This document shows, piece by piece, positions 4,155-42,670 of a DNA stretch of 64,000 nt. Origin of the DNA: TPA_inf: Saccharomyces (lineage: Eukaryota). Position 1 is the stretch's first letter. Each line of letters begins with the position of its first letter. A model generated the notes under the pieces. The model made no database searches and was not told where the DNA came from. It saw only the letters and a program-made list of their open reading frames with translations. The translations under genes were made by a program, and so were the position numbers. Where the stretch lies: assembly GCA_000146045.2 (NCBI GenBank), contig BK006944.2, positions 416,001 through 480,000 on the forward strand. The letters are read 5' to 3'.

Positions 4155-5216
4155 TTAGTCATTGTTGTAAGTGTTCTGCAAAAATTTCAGCTTTTGTACC
4201 TTATTTTCACAAAATTCAAACACCTGTCCGAACTGTGTTTTAACCAGTGTTTTTGAATTCAAGAGTTCAGTAATACTTTCATAATTTTTTAACCACTCCA
4301 TCCAAGACAAACAATGGAGGAATGAATCTGCCAAATCGTCATCTTTTCTCACCCCCGAATTATCTTGGATCTCTAGTATATCACATAGCTTGAAACTTTT
4401 TTTTTTGGTAAGGGCATTTCTTATCCTATTATTCCAAACTCCTATGAACTCGACCAGTTTTGTAGAACTAGTTGAATTACCTTCTAGTATTGAGGTTGAA
4501 AGTATTTTTTTCACTAGCTTTATTCGAGAATCTTTGCTATGTTTGTTAGATTTTAACTTTTTTGAACTGGTCGGTGTCTCTTCTCTTGGAATGCACCAAT
4601 ATGAAGTCATCCGATGTGGATCGGACGAACATACCATATACCTCAACTTGGACGTATTCGGTATTTTATTCGTATACTTCATTTTATTTTCCAAGTTAGA
4701 GAAAAGAATCTGTTCGAGAATATTCACTTTTAAAATTGGGTCTAAAATATGCCTCGAAGACATAGTTCTGGTACGTTGCCTTTCAATTGTAAACATATCT
4801 GGTATCGGCATAGATTCAAATAAATACTCCGTAAGGTTAAATACAAGCTCAGAAGTTTCAGCAGGATTCAAGCTTAACTTTTTGAGGTTTTGAAAAAATT
4901 TCTCCTCTAGATTTATCTTTTGCCAGTCTAGTACTTTAGGGAGCGGATCATTATTGAGCAATTGCATCTTAGAGAAAGCAAAGTTAGAAACACCAGCATC
5001 CATAGACAATATGTTAATTCTTCCCTCTCTTATCTTTTGTTGTCGTAACTTCTCCAAAAATTCACACTGTTCTTGAATGTAGGTTCTTTTAGCTTCTTTC
5101 GTCGTGCCATTTACTGCTCCAATAACAAATGATAAAGATTTCAGTTGTGTGCTTTTTGCATTTTGGCAGCAGGAATCGATGAGTTGCAATATCTTAGCTT
5201 TCTGTGCTGTCGACAT
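4155..5216 (-). CDS. CCE1: Mitochondrial cruciform-cutting endonuclease (Holliday-junction resolvase), 353 aa
   Basis: The track ORF (383 aa) begins at a TTG. The first ATG gives MSTAQKAKILQLIDSC..., 353 aa, matching CCE1 (YKL011C). Confidence 0.88.
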   Translation of the reverse strand: MSTAQKAKILQLIDSCCQNAKSTQLKSLSFVIGAVNGTTKEAKRTYIQEQCEFLEKLRQQKIREGRINILSMDAGVSNFAFSKMQLLNNDPLPKVLDWQKINLEEKFFQNLKKLSLNPAETSELVFNLTEYLFESMPIPDMFTIERQRTRTMSSRHILDPILKVNILEQILFSNLENKMKYTNKIPNTSKLRYMVCSSDPHRMTSYWCIPREETPTSSKKLKSNKHSKDSRIKLVKKILSTSILEGNSTSSTKLVEFIGVWNNRIRNALTKKKSFKLCDILEIQDNSGVRKDDDLADSFLHCLSWMEWLKNYESITELLNSKTLVKTQFGQVFEFCENKVQKLKFLQNTYNND

Positions 5217-11294: not shown

Positions 11295-12551
11295 TCAAAT
11301 ATCCTTTTTCGTTGGAGTACTGTCAGTTGGAGTAGTGGAACTTTCATCACTTTCTTCGTCTGATTCACTATCACTTCTGTCATCCTTGAGAATACCTCTC
11401 CATAGAATCCTGTAAAGAACTCTAAAAATAAGGAACAGCCAATAAAGATTCACTAATTGCAAAGCGCCTATCAATACAAAGACAATTGGTAAGGAAATCC
11501 AACATTTATATTGCTGAGTGGCAAAATTCAAGACATAGTTACCTTCCGTGCGAAATTGCGTTAAAACGGACCATAGGATCTTTAAATTTATGTAATGACG
11601 CAAATAAATCCACGCAACAACAAAGATAGCAAAAGAAAAAAAAGCCAATCCAGAGTCCAAATAATTTAGAGTTTTGGAGAATGACAAAAGAAAATCAGAA
11701 ACATCCATTGTGATATAGATTGGCAGTCCCATTTTAGTGAAATGAAATACGTAGGAAGACCAAATCAATAGTAAAGTAACAATATGATGGAAAGTCAACT
11801 CGTTATGATCTTTTCTTGGCTTTTCTAGTTGCAATACAAGAATGCAGGCTTGTTGAGCCCAAAATGCAGCTTGACCCAAATAGAATACCTTGAATAAGAA
11901 GGGATTAGTGAAATCTGGATATGTTCTGTACATTGCCTTTGTGTTGAAAAACCATAAATCCGAATGGTACATACAATATATCCCGAAAGGACCGGAAACA
12001 CCGGTGTAGAAAATAGCGTACATTTGTTCCATGATTCTTTTTATTCTGTGCTTAGAAGTGACGTGTAACCTAATAGCGAACGGTCTAATGACAACATCCA
12101 TTAGGAATTCACGTAAGAATGTGAAAAAAATCATATAGTAAAATACAAAGCACAAATCGTTAATACCTTTACCATATGCGTTGGTATCACCTATTTGGTA
12201 TGACACAGCGACAAATCTATGTAACACATTTGTCTTTGTAGTGTTACCAGAAGTGAAATAGGCACTATATACCGCGATTAAAATCATCAAGGGAGCTATC
12301 CAGGCATGACGGTAACTTATCTCTCGGAATGAAAACCAGATTTTCTTGACCAGGTCGCTATCATTTTTGGTGGCTTCAGATAATCTCTGCATACGCCTTT
12401 TAGCAGCCGTTTTAGATTCTTTTGTCTCGAACATAGTACCTAAACTAGGTACAGTGTCCCCGAGGTCGATCTTACCTATGGAAGACTTGCGTCTTGGTCT
12501 TGACCTCACTTTCAAATTGTTGTTTGAAGGGCTTGGCTTTATTGTCGACAT
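11295..12551 (-). CDS. LAC1: Ceramide synthase catalytic subunit (TLC/Lag1 domain), multi-pass membrane protein, 418 aa
   Basis: 418-aa ORF with a true ATG, multiple hydrophobic segments, and a C-terminal acidic tail with the DxRSDxE-type motif. The length matches LAC1 (YKL008C). Confidence 0.9.
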
Positions 12552-13117: not shown

Positions 13118-13141
13118 ATCACGTGATAATCACTGCACGTG
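13118..13141. promoter_or_regulatory. Two CACGTG E-boxes (perfect palindrome ATCACGTGAT at about 13118..13127; second CACGTG at about 13136..13141), followed by a CATGTG at about 13147..13152 and preceded by a CGCGT-CGCGT doublet at about 13090..13099. Lies in the LAC1/CAP1 divergent promoter.
   Basis: Motifs read from the sequence. RTCACRTG is the Cbf1-type (and Pho4-type) bHLH binding consensus, and CGCGT is the MCB core. Which factor binds here is unknown. Confidence 0.4.
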
Positions 13142-13301
13142 ACTATCATGTGATACGATAGCCGGGTTATGATCCCCTTTTTCTTCCTATTGGAATACTG
13201 ATTTTACAGTGGCTAGTACTGGATTTGAGTATAGGAAGGTGTTAGCAACTGTAAGGTACTATTCAGACCGTTAATCCAACGGATCATAAGAGCGACAGAA
13301 A

Positions 13302-14108
13302 ATGTCTAGTAGTAAATTCGAAGAGGTCATCAACAAGATCATCAATGACAGCCCTCCAGGAGAATTAAGGGAAGTATACGACGATCTAATCAAGATCACA
13401 AGTGAAAACTCCAAAAATACTATTTTGGATGCTATTGAGAATTACAACGTGCAGAATTGCATCCCTATAGAAGTCAACGGGAACTCTGTAATTATTTCCA
13501 AATACAACAAGGAAGGAGCAAAGTTTTTTGATCCCGTAAATTCCGTAATATTTTCAGTTAACCATTTAGAGCGCAAGGGCCTTGACATTGAACCATATGA
13601 GTTCACGCATGCAAAGATAGAGAAAGGGCAATTGAAAGAACTGCACGATAAATTGCACGAATATCTTCTTCAGAGCTTTCCAGGTGATGTCAGTTTTGCT
13701 GTTTACCCAGTCCCTGAGGAAATAAGTAAAATTTCTATTATTATTGTTAGCACCAAATATAATCCAAACAATTTCTGGAACGGCCATTGGAGATCAAGCT
13801 ACATCTACGATTTGGAGACCAGGGAGTTATCCGGTCAAATCTCTACGCAAGTCCACTATTACGAAGACGGTAACGTTAGTTTCCAATCTGGGAAGGATAT
13901 CAATCAATCTAACGTTGATGACGTTGTTTGCACAATAAGGGATATTGAGACGAATTTCGAAAATGATCTAGATCTTTCATTTTTCGACTTGAACGAAAAA
14001 CAGTTTAAGGCCTTAAGAAGAAGATTACCAGTCACGAGATCCAAAATTAACTGGGGTAGTGCGATTGGCAGTTATAGATTGGGTAAGAATGCGGCAGAAG
14101 GCAAATGA
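13302..14108 (+). CDS. CAP1: F-actin capping protein alpha subunit, 268 aa
   Basis: 268-aa ORF with a true ATG. Matches CAP1 (YKL007W) in length and gene order. Confidence 0.9.
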   Translation: MSSSKFEEVINKIINDSPPGELREVYDDLIKITSENSKNTILDAIENYNVQNCIPIEVNGNSVIISKYNKEGAKFFDPVNSVIFSVNHLERKGLDIEPYEFTHAKIEKGQLKELHDKLHEYLLQSFPGDVSFAVYPVPEEISKISIIIVSTKYNPNNFWNGHWRSSYIYDLETRELSGQISTQVHYYEDGNVSFQSGKDINQSNVDDVVCTIRDIETNFENDLDLSFFDLNEKQFKALRRRLPVTRSKINWGSAIGSYRLGKNAAEGK

Positions 14109-14632: not shown

Positions 14633-15493
14633 CGCTATGATGATTATATATTACCTTTCTACCGTTCTCTCCTTGTTGAGTTCTTCCAGTATCCTTCTTA
14701 ATGATATACCTTATATTATTTCCTCTTTTTTTTTCTGCATGTAGCAATGCGCGGCTTCTTGCAATAACAAGAAAACTAGAGTAGCTAATTTACTGCATGA
14801 ACCGTACATTCAGCAACAAGAAACATAAGATACTTACCGCACAATATTCATTGGTCAGTTACCGTACACACGAAGATCCTTTCTGAGTAGCGTAGTTTAA
14901 GGGAGCACACATTTTTAAATTCTAAACATTGCCTCAAGATGTTCTCCCATATACAAGGAAGGAATATTGAGCAACATGGTTAATCTGCCAGTTGCAACAA
15001 CGCAAGTGTTATTAGAAATATTGTTCAAGGAAAATATCAGATAAAAAATTTTTCGCACTTCGCTAATCACCCATATAGAACATGGCGGTGTTCCAAGTGA
15101 TTAGCCCTAGATCGCAAATTATATCATCATTCAGTTACCTTTCTCATTGAATCTTCTTGATAAGAACTACTGGTACCTCAAATAGGAACGAAATATGATA
15201 CCACTGTATCATACTATCATTCTCAACACATTTGTTATATATTTTATGTTTCTACTGAACCTTTTGTCAGTCATCTCACTAGCAGCTGCGATTAACAGTC
15301 ATCGGATATTTAAAATTGAAGCTTTTAAAATTGAAGCTTTTAAAATCAAACATGAATACACATTGGAGTTCACTGAAGAAATTAGGTTTAAATAAAAAAA
15401 TCCAGCATTAGTTGTGAAGTAAAAAAAGACAAAACCAGCAAATTCTTGCCAGAATGTAACTATACTCTGAGTAAAATAATTGACAGCGCAAAT

Positions 15494-17092: not shown

Positions 17093-18877
17093 TTAATGGA
17101 TAAATTCCTGTTTCACGACAACAAATGCGAATAATGTTCTTTCATCTGATTTCATTCGCGAAAATCTCTCAGATCTTTCATCATTGTGACTGCCTAAAAT
17201 ATCTTTCAAAATTTCAGGAATTTCACCGCCCTTCGATGGAACGATATAAAAATCCTTCTCGTATCTAGTTTTTGGCTTTATACCTGCAATGCGACCTTTG
17301 TTTTCCAGGGAGTCTACAACGTCGGCAAAAGTTGTCTTACTTTCACTATCATTCGAAGGAAATAATTGGTATACTAATATAGCTCTAGAGCAAGAAATTT
17401 CCTTAAGATATGGTGCAGCAGTGGTTGTAGGTAAGCGCCCTTCTACATACAGTTTTCCGTCACCAATGGCTTCCTTGAAAATATCCCGTCTTAACTTTTG
17501 TGAAGCCCCAATGTAGTTTAGGTAACCTGTAAACTCAAGTCCTAAGCCGGGATACAAAAATGCGCAGTTTAAAGATTCTTCGTTGATTATTGTACTTGGG
17601 CTGGGTTCTTTCGAAATGGCATGAGTCTGTTCTATTTTACTCTTATCGCTGTCGATACTGTCAATGTTGTGTAATCTTATGCTGTCTTTTGAGTACAAAA
17701 TATCCTCTTGAGGTTCAGCGATATCTTCGATCAGCTCATCACCCTTGTGGGTCTTAACGTACATGGGTTTGTCAGGTACCTCCACGATAAAATTTTCTAA
17801 GATAATCTTATCCCTTTTCTCTTTAAATTCTTGTAAGTCAGGATTTGCGAGTTCAGATGCGTTCATGTTCACCAGTTTATTTAAAGGCAATTTGCCCTCG
17901 ACAACGTGTGCCTTCAGTTCCAAATTTTTTTTATCCTTTAAATTAGAGTATAACGACCTCACTTTCTCTGTGTATATCTTGTCCAAAGTACCAAACTCGA
18001 CGTTAAGGCAAGCTTTGTAAAGTTCTTCTTCCAGATTGTGCGCAAACTCTTGCGATATCGATATAACGTCTTTCCCATCAGGAAGCTCATAAAGTTTTGC
18101 CTCAATTGTTTCGGGAACGATGAATTTGCTAAATAAGGTAGAGAACATTTTTTCTGCATTATACCTCAGTTTGTGTTCTTTTTCGCTTTCAAAATCTTTC
18201 CTAGTAGGCATTTCGTTTTCGGCAGTATCAGACTTGGCGGCATCAATGCTTTTATTCCTTTTTTTTGACCCATTGGATTTCTTCACCTGTTTGGATTTGA
18301 TATGAATTCCTTTGGCACTATCGGGGCTCCTTTTTCGTTTCCTAGGGCTTTCCTCATCAAGAAAGACATCTGCATCATTGTCATCATGGTCATTTACGGG
18401 CTTGTAAACATCATCATGGTAATCTTCATCCTCTGAAACCTCTGCCTCCTTTGACGTTTCCAAATGTGCATACAATGATGGGTCGCACAATTCACAGTAG
18501 TACTTAGAATCTTCACTCATTAGCCCATCTATGGTGTCTTTACCATCAGTCATACATTTAATATGCTGCCAAGTGTCACAGCCATCGCACTGTACCATGT
18601 CGCCATGCGAATATTCTGCAGCATCGTAGTTTTCATTGTTCGCCCCACACAGACATCTAACATAGCCCTCATCCGCTTCGTCTACTTCGTCTGTTCTTAC
18701 ATTTTCAGTATCTTTCCTTGGCTCCTGAGAAGAATCAGACTTCTTATTCTTCTCTATGGCTGAATCAACTTTCTTTTTAGTTCTTTTTTTCTTTGGTGCT
18801 TCAGTCTCCTCCTGTAACAAATACTCAATATATTTATTCTGACCCTTATTAGATCTTGAAGAAGTACGGACAGACAT
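17093..18877 (-). CDS. BYE1: Negative regulator of transcription elongation with PHD finger, TFIIS-central and SPOC-like regions, 594 aa
   Basis: 594-aa ORF with a true ATG and a Cys/His PHD-type cluster near the N-terminus (CLCG...C..C..WQHIKC). The length matches BYE1 (YKL005C). Confidence 0.88.
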
Positions 18878-21777: not shown

Positions 21778-22544
21778 ATGAGTTTGTTTGAGTGGGTATT
21801 TGGAAAGAATGTCACTCCGCAAGAGAGGTTAAAAAAAGTATGTTGTTCTGTATTTGGATCAGTTATTTTAGTGAACATACTAACGTTAATTATTTGAGTT
21901 TTTAGAATCAAAGGGCTTTAGAAAGGACTCAGAGGGAGCTTGAAAGAGAAAAGAGAAAATTGGAACTACAAGATAAAAAACTTGTATCAGAAATTAAAAA
22001 ATCGGCAAAGAATGGGCAAGTTGCAGCTGCGAAAGTTCAAGCAAAAGATTTAGTAAGAACCCGGAATTACATCCAAAAATTTGACAACATGAAAGCTCAA
22101 CTTCAGGCGATATCATTGAGAATACAGGCCGTTCGAAGTAGTGACCAAATGACACGTTCTATGAGCGAGGCCACTGGTCTTTTGGCTGGAATGAACAGAA
22201 CAATGAATCTACCTCAGTTGCAAAGGATATCGATGGAGTTTGAAAAGCAGAGTGATTTGATGGGTCAACGACAGGAATTCATGGACGAAGCTATTGATAA
22301 CGTCATGGGTGATGAGGTGGATGAAGACGAAGAAGCTGACGAAATTGTAAATAAAGTTCTTGATGAGATTGGAGTGGATTTGAATTCACAGTTGCAAAGC
22401 ACGCCTCAAAATCTGGTTTCTAATGCGCCGATCGCAGAAACAGCGATGGGGATTCCTGAACCTATTGGCGCCGGATCAGAATTTCACGGTAATCCTGACG
22501 ATGACTTGCAAGCTCGGTTGAACACTTTGAAGAAGCAGACTTGA
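21778..22544 (+). CDS. DID4: ESCRT-III subunit (Snf7 family), 232 aa. Exons 21778..21837 and 21906..22544; intron 21838..21905 (68 nt).
   Basis: Exon 1 (MSLFEWVFGKNVTPQERLKK) is followed by GTATGT. TACTAAC at about 21878..21884 and a TTTAG acceptor at 21904/21905. Exon 2 (NQRALERTQRELEREKRKLELQDKK...) is in frame with the track ORF 21960..22544. Matches DID4/VPS2 (YKL002W). Confidence 0.88.
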
Positions 22545-22776: not shown

Positions 22777-23385
22777 TTACAAATGCTTACGGATGATTTT
22801 TTCACTGATTAAGTACTCATAAATAATGGTAGCACATTCTTCAACCGTCTTCTGGTCGGTTCTCAAATGTAGCTCTGGAGCTTTTGGCGCTTCATATGGG
22901 GCAGAAATACCTGTAAACTCCTTGATTACACCCTCCCTAGCTTTCTTGTATAAACCCTTAGGGTCCCTTTGCTCAGCGACTTCTAATGGAACATCAACAA
23001 ATATTTCAATGAACTTCAAACCAGCCTCCTTATGTAGTTCACGAGCTCTATCTCTGTCAACTCTGTATGGAGAGATAAATGAGGTGATTGAAATAGCACA
23101 TGAATCAGCAAATAGCTTAGAAACTTCGCTAATTCTACGAATGTTTTCATTTCTGTCCTTTTCTGAGAAACCCAAATCCTTGTTCAATCCAAAACGAATG
23201 TTGTCACCATCCAATCTATATGCAGACAAGTTTTTTTGGAGCAGTAACTGTTCTAGCGCACAGGCGATTGTACTTTTACCTGACGCACTTAGACCTGTTA
23301 ACCAAATAGTACAACCGTCCTGTTTTCTCAATGCCTTGCGTTCGTCGTAAGTAAGATTTGGATGCCAAGTAATATTAGTAGCCAT
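22777..23385 (-). CDS. MET14: Adenylylsulfate (APS) kinase of the sulfate assimilation pathway, 202 aa
   Basis: The track ORF begins at a TTG. The first ATG gives [22 protein letters not shown]..., 202 aa, with a P-loop GLSASGKST. Matches MET14 (YKL001C). Confidence 0.9.
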
Positions 23386-23605: not shown

Positions 23606-23613
23606 ATCACGTG
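23606..23613. promoter_or_regulatory. TCACGTGA Cbf1-type E-box about 225 bp upstream of the MET14 ATG
   Basis: Exact RTCACRTG consensus in the promoter of a sulfur-metabolism gene. MET genes are known Cbf1/Met4/Met28 targets. It is not part of the centromere, because no CDEII/CDEIII follow it. Confidence 0.6.
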
Positions 23614-24127
23614 AAATTAGTGGCACGGTCTTTTATTCCTGGAAAAGCGTGCAGCTATTTTTCGAGAATAATGTAAGGTACCGTGGGTGCCGTACCATCA
23701 CGCCGAAATGAAAGCAACTGTATTCTTTAATGTTACGCATTCTTGGTTGTTGGCTTATTTACATTTCTCGCGAGCTGGTGATGAGCCAAATGTCGTAGTG
23801 GAATGATTCTAGAAGTGCAGAGTTATCTGCTACATTGCCAAGGCGTCGTAACCGGGAGGGCTCACAAAGGCGCTTGCTCTAAACATGCATAGGGAAATTT
23901 GAAAATGATTGTTATGAGTAAACCTGTTAATGCTCCTTTAAACGTAATCTTATTTCACCAATTTTAAAAAAAGAAATTGGTAATTAACCTCACCTAACTT
24001 CTGTAATCACTTGTCAACGCTATTTACAATTTTGCTTTGATTTATACAGAGGAAGCAGTTTACTCTCCTTTCTATGTGTATTTGATTATTTTAATTACCA
24101 AGAAAACAAATTCTCGTAACATTCTTA

Positions 24128-24246
24128 TTTTATACGTTCGGAAATCATGAACATTTATTTTTATGATTATGTAATTAAAAAAATATAATAAATTTATTTT
24201 GAAAATTAATTTTTTTAAAATTTTAAATATGTTTTTATCATGTGAC
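24128..24246. other. CEN11: Point centromere (CEN11-like). CDEIII 24128..24153 (TGTTCATGATTTCCGAACGTATAAAA on the minus strand), CDEII 24154..24238 (85 bp, about 95% A+T), CDEI 24239..24246 (GTCACATG on the minus strand).
   Basis: The tripartite structure was read directly: a conserved CDEIII with its central CCG, a CDEII of canonical length and A/T content, and an 8-bp CDEI RTCACRTG. The flanking genes (MET14 and VPS1, i.e. YKL001C and YKR001C) straddle the L/R arm boundary of chromosome XI. Confidence 0.9.
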
Positions 24247-24607
24247 TTATGAAAATGATATTTACGGTTCAAGAGAAAGATAAATGCAGAATCAATCAAT
24301 ACAATGAATAGTACCTTATTTAGTATTGGACCATTGAGGTATTAGGTATTAGTAGAAATATCCTAAACACTAGTATTGACAAAAGAATAATATTATATGC
24401 TATCAATTATCATTCCCATCCTCATGTTGACCTTCTTCATATTGGACAAAAGATACTAGGATCGTAATGCGAGATAGGAAATTCTTCAAAAGCATAATTT
24501 ATAGACTAGCTTCCACGTATACAAGAACAATATATAAGATTTGCAGTAAATATTAGGGAGAAATACTCAAAACCAAGCTTGAGTCGACCGGTATAGATGA
24601 GGAAAAC

Positions 24608-26722
24608 CTAAACAGAGGAGACGATTTGACTAGCGTTTCTCAATATCTCGACCATCTTCTTACATTCTTTTCTTCTTTGAATGGTTATGTCGTTTTCTTT
24701 CGTTAATTCTTCAATATCTTGCTTTCCGTAAAGTTTTTCGAGTAAAACTTTCTGAATATCAGTTTTACTTTTCACAATCAATTTAAGCATCAAAGCCTTT
24801 GGTATAATATCGGCAATGGTTCTTTTGACAATAGAGAAATAACTACTAATCAACAACTTGATTACTTCTGTTTCCATTGTTTCCCTCTCTGTCATTTGGC
24901 CAGTAGCTTTTAAAACAGGAGGTGGGGATTCCAAAGCTGCCAATTTCTTCTTGTTTTTAGTGGAGAAGAACCCACCAAAAAATCCTGATTTCTCTTCCAT
25001 AACTGGCGCCTTACTAGACGATGGTTGGGTTGGTAATGGTTTACCCGTCTTTGGGTCAACAGCGACTTGGCGAGGATGTAATTTTTCTTCCACCATAACC
25101 ATTGCTTGAGAACCCTTCAAAAGGTCGGGATGGGCTGTATTGATGTAAGTTTGTTCAGCTTTGATGATATCGACAACAAACTCATTCGTAGGAATAGTAG
25201 CATCCTTTAAGAACTGAATGAACTGATTAGAAATCGCTTCTCTTAGAGCAGGATACCTTGAGTACTTTGGTTGTGAAATAATCTGTTTTAGCATACGAAC
25301 AAGTTCATCAAACACCAGAGTAACTAAACGTAGAGATGGTTCTTCAAATCTTCTAATTTGCTGTTTAACTAAAACTTCAAAAGCTTCGGTACCGACAAAC
25401 AAAGATGGGGCAGAACCTGAACTATTGTACATAATGGTTCTGATATCAGAATCTTTGATCTGGTCGAATGGATCCAAAGAGTCTACACCATTTTTGAAAG
25501 TTTCATGGAATACGTAAGAAATTCTAGCACCACCAGAAAGTTCCTGACTGGAAAGCTCCTTCGCCTCACCGTCCAAGATACCGGCATATTCATTGGAAAA
25601 ATCAGTAATCATGCTCAAAACAACCGAACTAGCTGAATCCATAGTTTCTGGGCCCAAGTTTATAAGTTCGTTTTGATATTTTTTCAATGTGGCTTCGATT
25701 TTCGCTTTGATTTCTGGCAGAGTTTGCCTAATGTGGTGTAATAAGATTGAGTTTAACTTTTTAGCCAAATATGGTGTACCACAGTAATGAGCTTTAGAAC
25801 TGTAAGAGGGATGGTTCTCAAAAAATTTTCTTTCGTTTTCAAGGGCTTCTCTGATTGTTTTTTTGTGTTCAATATCCTTTTGACCTCTATTGATAACTGG
25901 GATATAACCATATCTCAAAGGAATGACTCTTCCAGCCAAAATATCTATGACATCTGTACCTTGATCCATCAAATCGACTTTTGTCAAGACACCAATAGTT
26001 CTCGTTCCTTCTGGATCGACCTCTCTAGCCAGCTTCAAACCATCGCTGTTGGCTAAATCGGTGTTAGCGGCATTAACAGATAATATGATAGCGTTTGGTT
26101 TCGAAATATACTTTAACAACATGTCCTTAATTTGTCTTTCAATATCAGGAGGTTGGTCACCTACGGGAACCTTCGTCAACCCAGGCAAATCCACTAACGT
26201 CAAAGTAAGAACATGCGGAGAATAAATTCTCAAGTTAATGGGCACAGAAGAAATACCTGAATTGGCACCTGTCACTTTGTCAGTTTCTTTGACGATTTCC
26301 TTTCTAATTTCGTCAAAATTATAAAACTTCTTACCAGGTAAATGCAAAAATTCACCCCATTCCTCTTTATTGTCTTCAGATTGTCCCTCGTTCTGGTGCT
26401 TTCCTGATTCATCCTTTTTCTTGTCATCATCGTTGATGTTCAAGTCAATCAATTCATTAGCAGTTTGGTTTACTTTAGCATGTTCTGACTTTTTTGGTCT
26501 CCTATTAATCAATTGTAACACTAAAGGTCTCCTGGTGACAATACCAGTACCTCTTGGCAAGAAATCCCTACCAACAATGTTCTCCAAAACGGACGACTTT
26601 CCTGACGACTGGGAACCGACAACAGTGATCTGTGGTAAATCAATAGGAGATTGAGATCCTCCTCCTAAGGGCGCCAAAGCGTCCTGAAGCTTGTTAATAG
26701 TAGAAATTAAATGCTCATCCAT
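24608..26722 (-). CDS. VPS1: Dynamin-like GTPase for vacuolar protein sorting, endocytosis and peroxisome fission, 704 aa
   Basis: 704-aa ORF with a true ATG and dynamin GTPase motifs ([20 protein letters not shown]). Matches VPS1 (YKR001C). Confidence 0.93.
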
Positions 26723-32036: not shown

Positions 32037-32520
32037 AACTTCAACAATTGTTTTGAGCGTTTCCTTTTAGCATTTTTTTGTTTGGCTTTTGTTTGTTCTT
32101 TTGTGTACTTTTCATGTATTTGATCTTCCATGTGCAAAAATAAGTGAAAAAGAGCTGAACTAAATGTAGTATTAAAATCAAGAACAAAACATAAAAAGGA
32201 AAGGAGAAAATGGAACAATTGCTTAGTCAAATAATGTGAAGTTATAAAACTGCCGGAAGCCTATAAAAAATATTTTCTTTACTGAGACCGTGATCAGGAG
32301 AACGAATGTGTATTAATAGCTGTATATATCTTATAAAGACGAAGCCTATTTACTATCAACGCTATGTAAGTTTGTACTATTATCCTTGTGAAACAAATAA
32401 TTGGAGGACAGTCAATAGCATCATCTAACATCGTGAAACGAATCAGTGATTGAAAGGAATTAAATGAGCAACGTGCATAAATAATATCGGTAAAGAAAAA
32501 AGAGCGCAATGGTTTCATGA

Positions 32521-42556: not shown

Positions 42557-42670
42557 GGTTGTTTGGCCGAGCGGTCTAAGGCGCCTGATTCAAGAAATAT
42601 CTTGACCGCAGTTAACTGTGGGAATACTCAGGTATCGTAAGATGCAAGAGTTCGAATCTCTTAGCAACCA
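42557..42670 (+). tRNA. tL(CAA): tRNA-Leu, anticodon CAA (42591..42593), with a 32-nt intron (42595..42626). Mature length 82 nt.
   Basis: GGTTGTTTGGCCGAGCGGTCTAAGGCGCCTGATTCAAG[intron]CTCAGGTATCGTAAGATGCAAGAGTTCGAATCTCTTAGCAACCA. The A-box TGGCCGAGCGG and B-box AGTTCGAATCT are present. A long variable arm is typical of Leu. The 7-bp acceptor stem pairs with AGCAACC and is followed by a discriminator A. Downstream T-rich terminator (TATTTTATATTTTTTT). Confidence 0.9.

Follow-up and report, generated by a model that had tools for sequence, protein, structure and literature searches.

A complete point centromere of the tripartite CDEI-CDEII-CDEIII type was identified on the minus strand of the window, the whole 64,000-nucleotide stretch of DNA analyzed here, between the genes VPS1 and MET14. 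The element at positions 24129–24246 is almost certainly CEN11, which is already known as the point centromere of chromosome XI in Saccharomyces cerevisiae, and nothing in our data speaks against this identity. CEN11 was among the first yeast centromeres to be cloned and sequenced and entered the textbooks in the early 1980s, its functional cloning having reportedly been published originally in 1982. To our knowledge, every S. cerevisiae reference carries it as an annotated feature. The value of the element is positional and not that of a discovery: it fixes the window, which we take to be about 416–480 kb of chromosome XI in reference coordinates, as the pericentromere of that chromosome. An annotated CEN11 at 440129–440246 of chromosome XI would correspond to a window of 416001–480000. 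The element is also a non-coding functional element of the kind that gene finders ignore. The coordinates of the centromere, its parts, and the other features discussed are collected in Table 1.

Table 1. Features located in the window (positions count from its first nucleotide).
Feature	Position	Strand	Description
Whole point centromere (assigned to CEN11), CDEI-CDEII-CDEIII	24129–24246	minus	118 bp, read directly from sequence
CDEI, GTCACATG	24239–24246	minus	8 bp; matches RTCACRTG; predicted Cbf1 bHLH-zip dimer site
CDEII	24154–24238	minus	85 bp; 95.3% A+T; predicted wrap of a single Cse4 (CENP-A) nucleosome
CDEIII, TGTTCATGATTTCCGAACGTATAAA	24129–24153	minus	25 bp; predicted CBF3 (Cep3, Ctf13-Skp1, Ndc10) site
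CDEIII contact bases	24151–24153; 24146; 24139–24141	minus	TGT half-site; central G; essential CCG
Cbf1-type E-box, ATCACGTG	23606–23613	plus	CACGTG at 23608–23613; MET14 promoter, not centromere
MET14 (adenylyl-sulfate kinase)	22777–23385	minus	Pfam APS_kinase; exact match to KAPS_YEAST, S. cerevisiae S288C
VPS1 (dynamin-like GTPase)	24608–26722	minus	Pfam Dynamin_N/M/GED; exact match to NP_012926.1, S. cerevisiae S288C
C/D box snoRNA snR87	15030–15138	minus	144 bits vs. gathering score of 37
Intron-containing tRNA gene	42557–42670	plus	114 nt; Rfam, 46 bits

The three parts of the element follow one another in the order I-II-III, all on the minus strand, with CDEI facing VPS1. Within CDEII, 81 of the 85 bases are A or T; its minus strand holds four C and no G, and A/T runs of at least four bases occur eight times. 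The CDEIII triad TGT-N4-G-N4-CCG is intact and comes with TTCCGAA. From CDEI to the TGNTTTCCGAA core the distance is 91 bp, consisting of the 85 bp of CDEII and 6 bp of CDEIII. Published S. cerevisiae centromeres are 111–120 bp long, with a CDEI of the form RTCACRTG, a CDEII of 78–87 bp and 76–98% A+T, and a CDEIII of ~25 bp in which WWCCGAA is invariant (PMC10810202). Since CDEI, CDEII, CDEIII, and the total size all lie inside these ranges, the tripartite element conforms to the definition of a Saccharomyces point centromere (PMC10810202). An earlier sequence-only reading had described a canonical 119-bp centromere at 24128–24246, and our analysis supports its tripartite anatomy. The length, however, is 118 bp (8 + 85 + 25), and the interval carried one surplus base at the CDEIII end, at 24128. 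The same reading had given CDEII as 85 bp with 95% A+T, which agrees with our count (95.3%), and had noted a CCG core in CDEIII, which we located. Compared with the CEN consensus, all three elements fit and the CCG triplet is free of mismatches. The strand is to be added to that description.

The identity of the locus was established from the flanking proteins, which were identified by exact-sequence look-up and proved to be those of strain S288C on both sides (Table 1). The VPS1 stop at 24608 lies 361 bp from CDEI, and CDEIII lies 743 bp from the MET14 ATG at 23385; the ~360 bp and ~740 bp estimated beforehand were thus accurate. Further along the window, a 594-aa ORF at 17093–18877 shares 99% identity with Bye1p of S. 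cerevisiae. An exact Vps1 is encoded at ~435–452 kb on NCBI contigs of 657–683 kb, which are the position and size expected for chromosome XI. The centromere itself sits at ~440 kb, the same place in all seven S. cerevisiae assemblies, on contigs of chromosome XI size. Its sequence is identical in six of these seven chromosome XI assemblies and differs in the remaining one (GCA_000975795.2; locus L002, 5535) by a single SNP, a T-to-G change inside CDEII; CDEI and CDEIII are unchanged in all of them. An 8.1-kb stretch of the window differed by one base from assembly GCA_016858175.1. The exact S288C flanks and the ~440-kb position place the element on chromosome XI, between MET14 (YKL001C) and VPS1 (YKR001C). 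This agrees with the literature, in which the ancestral centromere Anc_CEN2 is located between MET14 and VPS1 (PMC5433688) and in which strain constructions give a distance of 0.5 kb between CEN11 and the met14 locus (PMC3824013). The name CEN11 is given because of the exact S288C proteins, the sizes and positions of the contigs, and this literature, and not through alignment to the annotated chromosome XI. Anatomy, flanks, synteny, and literature therefore all agree with the earlier proposal of a point centromere between VPS1 and MET14.

Orthologous loci of other Saccharomyces species were obtained via relatives of Bye1 and Met14. They came from S. paradoxus (L010), S. kudriavzevii (L011), S. 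eubayanus (L012), S. uvarum (L008), and S. arboricola (L018), along with a contig that carries an exact S. mikatae Met14, referred to as S. mikatae-type (L017). One further contig, from Logan (L009), whose Bye1 clusters with that of S. paradoxus, begins inside CDEIII (GTGTCCGAACAT...) and so contains only part of the centromere; it was excluded from the alignments. With 10-kb flanks, the gene order PAP1-VPS1-MET14-DID4-MRP17-AUR1-BYE1 was common to the S. uvarum, S. paradoxus, S. kudriavzevii, and S. eubayanus loci, and the shorter S. mikatae-type and S. arboricola loci showed VPS1-MET14-...-MRP17-AUR1. In the S. mikatae-type locus, a second match to the centromere pattern was rejected as a false positive, as it made use of the MET14 promoter E-box and had a spacer of 65% A+T.

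Each of the six other Saccharomyces species carries an element of the same design in the VPS1-MET14 slot and in unchanged orientation, with (A/G)TCACATG, a spacer of 83–87 bp at 86–92% A+T, and a CDEIII containing TCCGAA. The distance from the VPS1 stop to the start of the element was 330–436 bp in the four loci in which it was measured. In the alignment of seven species, the only invariant blocks were TCACATGA (CDEI plus one base), TG, the central G, and TCCGAA; S. arboricola has TGG where the others have the TGT half-site. These invariant bases are those assigned to Cep3 and Ctf13 contacts by structural and crosslinking work (PMC6077249). Over the seven species, S. cerevisiae included, CDEII spans 83–87 bp and 86–95% A+T, and its identity to the S. 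cerevisiae sequence is 0.58–0.62, compared with 0.60–0.62 ± 0.03 in shuffled controls. In the same comparisons, third codon positions of MET14 were 62–78% identical and the flanking spacer 56–71%. Because CDEII identity stands at the shuffled level and size and A+T content are kept, the length and composition of CDEII are constrained and its primary sequence is free. CDEI and CDEIII are thus retained in synteny, and the CDEII between them keeps its length and composition without conservation of its sequence. Such a pattern is a known signature of Saccharomyces centromeres and of their rapid evolution (PMC3155921). The comparative data repeat a known paradox, namely that the central 85 bp of an essential element evolve faster than synonymous sites.

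Beyond the genus, VPS1 and MET14 are also adjacent in Kluyveromyces lactis, L. thermotolerans, Z. rouxii, and N. glabratus. The K. lactis spacer (L014, 4105–4303) contains a centromere-like arrangement of ATCACGTG, an AT-rich spacer, and then TTTCCGAAAATTAAAAT. A centromere-like element was also observed in L. thermotolerans (L016, ~4250–4400), where its orientation with respect to VPS1 and MET14 is reversed; it comprises the CDEI variant GTCACCTG, an AT-rich spacer of ~105 bp, and TTTTCCGAAACATTAAAT, with ATT in place of the Saccharomyces TGT half-site. No CDEI-CDEII-CDEIII arrangement was found in the syntenic VPS1-MET14 spacer of Z. rouxii (L015, 4168–5000) or N. glabratus (L013, 4358–5000), and these two species served solely as controls for the E-box of the MET14 promoter. 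The Z. rouxii result agrees with the published loss of Anc_CEN2 in that species, which took place by deletion of CDEIII (PMC5433688).

The absence of a centromere from this very locus, observed in our comparison for Z. rouxii and N. glabratus and published as a loss for the former (PMC5433688), gives some substance to the possibility that the element descends from a centromere but is now inactive, the working centromere lying elsewhere on the chromosome. We consider this very improbable. In the Z. rouxii relic CDEIII is deleted (PMC5433688), whereas TGT, G, and CCG are all intact in the window. The essential bases are, moreover, invariant in seven species while the adjoining DNA diverges to the level of shuffled sequence, and contact bases that stay fixed amid diverging neighbors require ongoing selection. 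The 64-kb window contains no second composite of CDEI and CDEIII. In addition, a Cse4 ChIP-seq study describes a sharp peak, with strong and tight binding, at CEN11 (PMC2656530).

The E-box upstream of MET14 bears on a different kind of alternative, in which the element serves as some other cis-acting sequence. The MET14 ATG lies 228 bp downstream of this E-box, and the centromere is 515 bp away from it, close to the ~520 bp estimated earlier. Beside its CACGTG (23608–23613) there is neither an AT-rich spacer nor a CDEIII. Nine other loci that were compared have a CACGTG upstream of MET14, at −151 to −245; among them is Z. rouxii, whose locus is without a centromere. In N. glabratus, where the locus also lacks one, CACGTG sites are found at greater distance, at −403 and −465. 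The presence of the MET14 E-box is therefore independent of that of the centromere. A CACGTG that lacks a spacer and CDEIII and is conserved near MET14, even where there is no centromere, supports the view taken in the sequence-only reading that the motif, placed there at 23606, belongs to a promoter and is no CDEI. Two observations on the motif itself can be added: Saccharomyces MET14 promoters share the E-box together with its flanks (CTAATTTCACGTGAT ... CAAGCCACC) at −208 to −228, and the −151 to −245 interval also holds the CACGTG of K. lactis, Z. rouxii, and L. thermotolerans.

The element could in principle be an autonomously replicating sequence (ARS), or a distal Cbf1-dependent UAS or terminator for MET14 or VPS1. 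It is AT-rich, as an ARS is; it is located in the 3' flank of VPS1 and upstream of MET14; and MET14 is a gene of the Cbf1-regulated type with a CACGTG of its own. That same E-box, conserved at −228 and retained in species without the centromere, nevertheless argues against a regulatory role for the centromere-like element. Exact matches to the 11-bp ARS consensus WTTTAYRTTTW occur in the window only at 334, 32186, 37560, 42673, and 44976, the nearest being that at 32186. As none falls within 8 kb of the element, its reading as a replication origin was rejected. An origin or promoter would also leave the invariant TGT-G-CCG, at a fixed 83–87 bp from CDEI, without explanation. Taken together, the probability left to this alternative is close to nil. 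A structured RNA in the spacer was likewise considered and rejected, the sole match being a sub-threshold mir-290 hit (E = 0.24) attributable to chance.

The composition of the window allowed the element to be compared with chance expectation. Single short motifs are not rare and occur about as often as chance predicts: RTCACRTG alone was found 7 times in the 64-kb window (6.2 expected), and the CDEIII core with one mismatch allowed 8 times (7.1 expected). The composite TCACRTG-N(70–95)-TGNTTTCCGAA, in contrast, occurred once in the 64-kb window, and 100 shuffles that preserved dinucleotides gave no hit. Point centromeres of this class are single-copy on each chromosome; the uniqueness observed here applies to the 64-kb window. 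Even with no demand on A+T content, a base-frequency model predicts ~1e-4 composites per 64 kb, a figure to be read as an order of magnitude only. CDEII is also the most AT-rich 85-mer of the window; away from the locus no 85-mer goes above 84.7%, and the window's 99.9th percentile for this measure is 85.9%. The local G+C profile falls to 9% at 24150–24249, and the centromere accounts for this A+T extreme at 24.15–24.24 kb. A fortuitous E-box and CCGAA flanking AT-rich 3' UTR or intergenic DNA without centromere function, which the expected frequencies of the single motifs and the generally AT-rich nature of yeast intergenic DNA might make conceivable, would have to produce the composite, a spacer richer in A+T than any other 85-mer of the window, and an architecture that six other species have in the corresponding position, where precisely the bases contacted by proteins are invariant and all others vary, so that this explanation is effectively refuted by the comparative data and retains next to no probability.

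Several other features of the window were noted in the course of the analysis. Three E-boxes, ATCACGTGAT, GCACGTGAC, and ATCATGTGAT, lie within 37 bp of one another at 13118–13154, in a 750-bp divergent spacer between a LAC1-like TRAM_LAG1_CLN8 ORF (11295–12551, minus strand) and an F-actin-capping alpha ORF (13302–14108, plus strand). This cluster contributes 4 of the 7 RTCACRTG matches of the window, and two to three of its copies are retained in S. paradoxus, S. kudriavzevii, S. uvarum, and S. eubayanus. The region looks like a conserved promoter with multiple predicted Cbf1 sites. With respect to RNA genes, ARAGORN reported zero tRNAs in the window and missed the tRNA gene found with Rfam (Table 1); its tRNA counts are consequently unreliable for this eukaryotic sequence. 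A Snf7-family ORF at 21960–22544 (plus strand) appears in the mechanical ORF list as 194 aa with a TTG start, and its product is 232 aa over a longer span in other assemblies (e.g., L001, 7179–7945). The difference between the 232-aa annotation and the 194-aa ORF points to an intron preceded by a 5' exon, both invisible to ORF listing.

The anatomy, uniqueness, locus identity, and comparative pattern of the element were observed directly in this work, and a probable function can be assigned to it from published studies of protein binding and chromosome segregation. On that basis, the Cep3 dimer within CBF3 would use its Zn2Cys6 domains to read the TGT/CCG pseudo-palindrome of CDEIII, and Ctf13-Skp1 would touch the conserved central G. 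These contact roles of TGT, G, and CCG, and the recognition of CDEIII by CBF3 through Cep3 and Ctf13, are described in structural work, as is the status of the CCG triplet as the sole part of the centromere intolerant of substitution (PMC6077249). CBF3, acting with Scm3, would direct one Cse4 (CENP-A) nucleosome onto the AT-rich CDEII, consistent with the published CBF3-dependent wrapping of CDEII by one such nucleosome (PMC13017519). A Cbf1 dimer at CDEI would position one CCAN protomer, and CBF3 would link both CCAN protomers; Cbf1 on CDEI, CCAN positioning, and bridging by CBF3 are all elements of the described inner kinetochore architecture (PMC10381965, PMC13017519). The Cse4 nucleosome would in turn recruit the kinetochore, leading to the capture of one spindle microtubule and to the segregation of chromosome XI. 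For yeast centromeres in general, published accounts describe stabilization of an ARS plasmid in mitosis and meiosis and abolition of function by CCG mutations (PMC10810202, PMC6077249).

A weak additional signal was observed on the MET14 side of the element. At 35–55 bp from CCG (window ~24087–24106, minus strand), a T-run followed by G(A/G)TA recurs at the same offset in five Saccharomyces species, namely those of the window and of the S. uvarum, S. paradoxus, S. kudriavzevii, and S. eubayanus loci. This block might represent a conserved extension of the kinetochore footprint past CDEIII, for example, a zone contacted by Ndc10, whose published contact zone includes thymines to the right of CDEIII (PMC6077249). 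We regard such an extension as doubtful and rather improbable, and a chance alignment of T-rich intergenic DNA is just as likely an explanation.

Compared with known systems, the element agrees with S. cerevisiae CEN11 in everything tested, and no substantive difference was found. Among yeast point centromeres, CEN3 is the structural and genetic model. The other S. cerevisiae centromeres, CEN3 among them, share with CEN11 the CDEI/CDEII/CDEIII plan, WWCCGAA, and RTCACRTG (PMC10810202), and they share its binding proteins (PMC6077249, PMC10381965). CEN3 and CEN11 are nevertheless only 66% identical, with uninterrupted homology of at most 11 bp (PMC10810202), and the CDEII of CEN11, at 95% A+T, is close to the top of the published range of 76–98%. 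The centromeres of other Saccharomyces species resemble CEN11 in their syntenic slot, orientation, (R)TCACATG CDEI, 83–87 bp CDEII, and TCCGAA, but differ in a CDEII that cannot be aligned, in a lower A+T content (86–92%), and in a CDEIII that varies outside the contact bases. In K. lactis, the candidate point centromere occupies the same VPS1-MET14 locus but has a CDEII of ~165 bp, about twice as long as that of CEN11, with 91% A+T. The proto-point centromeres of Hanseniaspora and Saccharomycodes and the epigenetic regional centromeres have in common with CEN11 a single CENP-A nucleosome and an AT-rich core (PMC13017519); their flanking elements are relaxed and variable or their contexts rich in repeats, whereas CEN11 has a strict, canonical CDEI and CDEIII.
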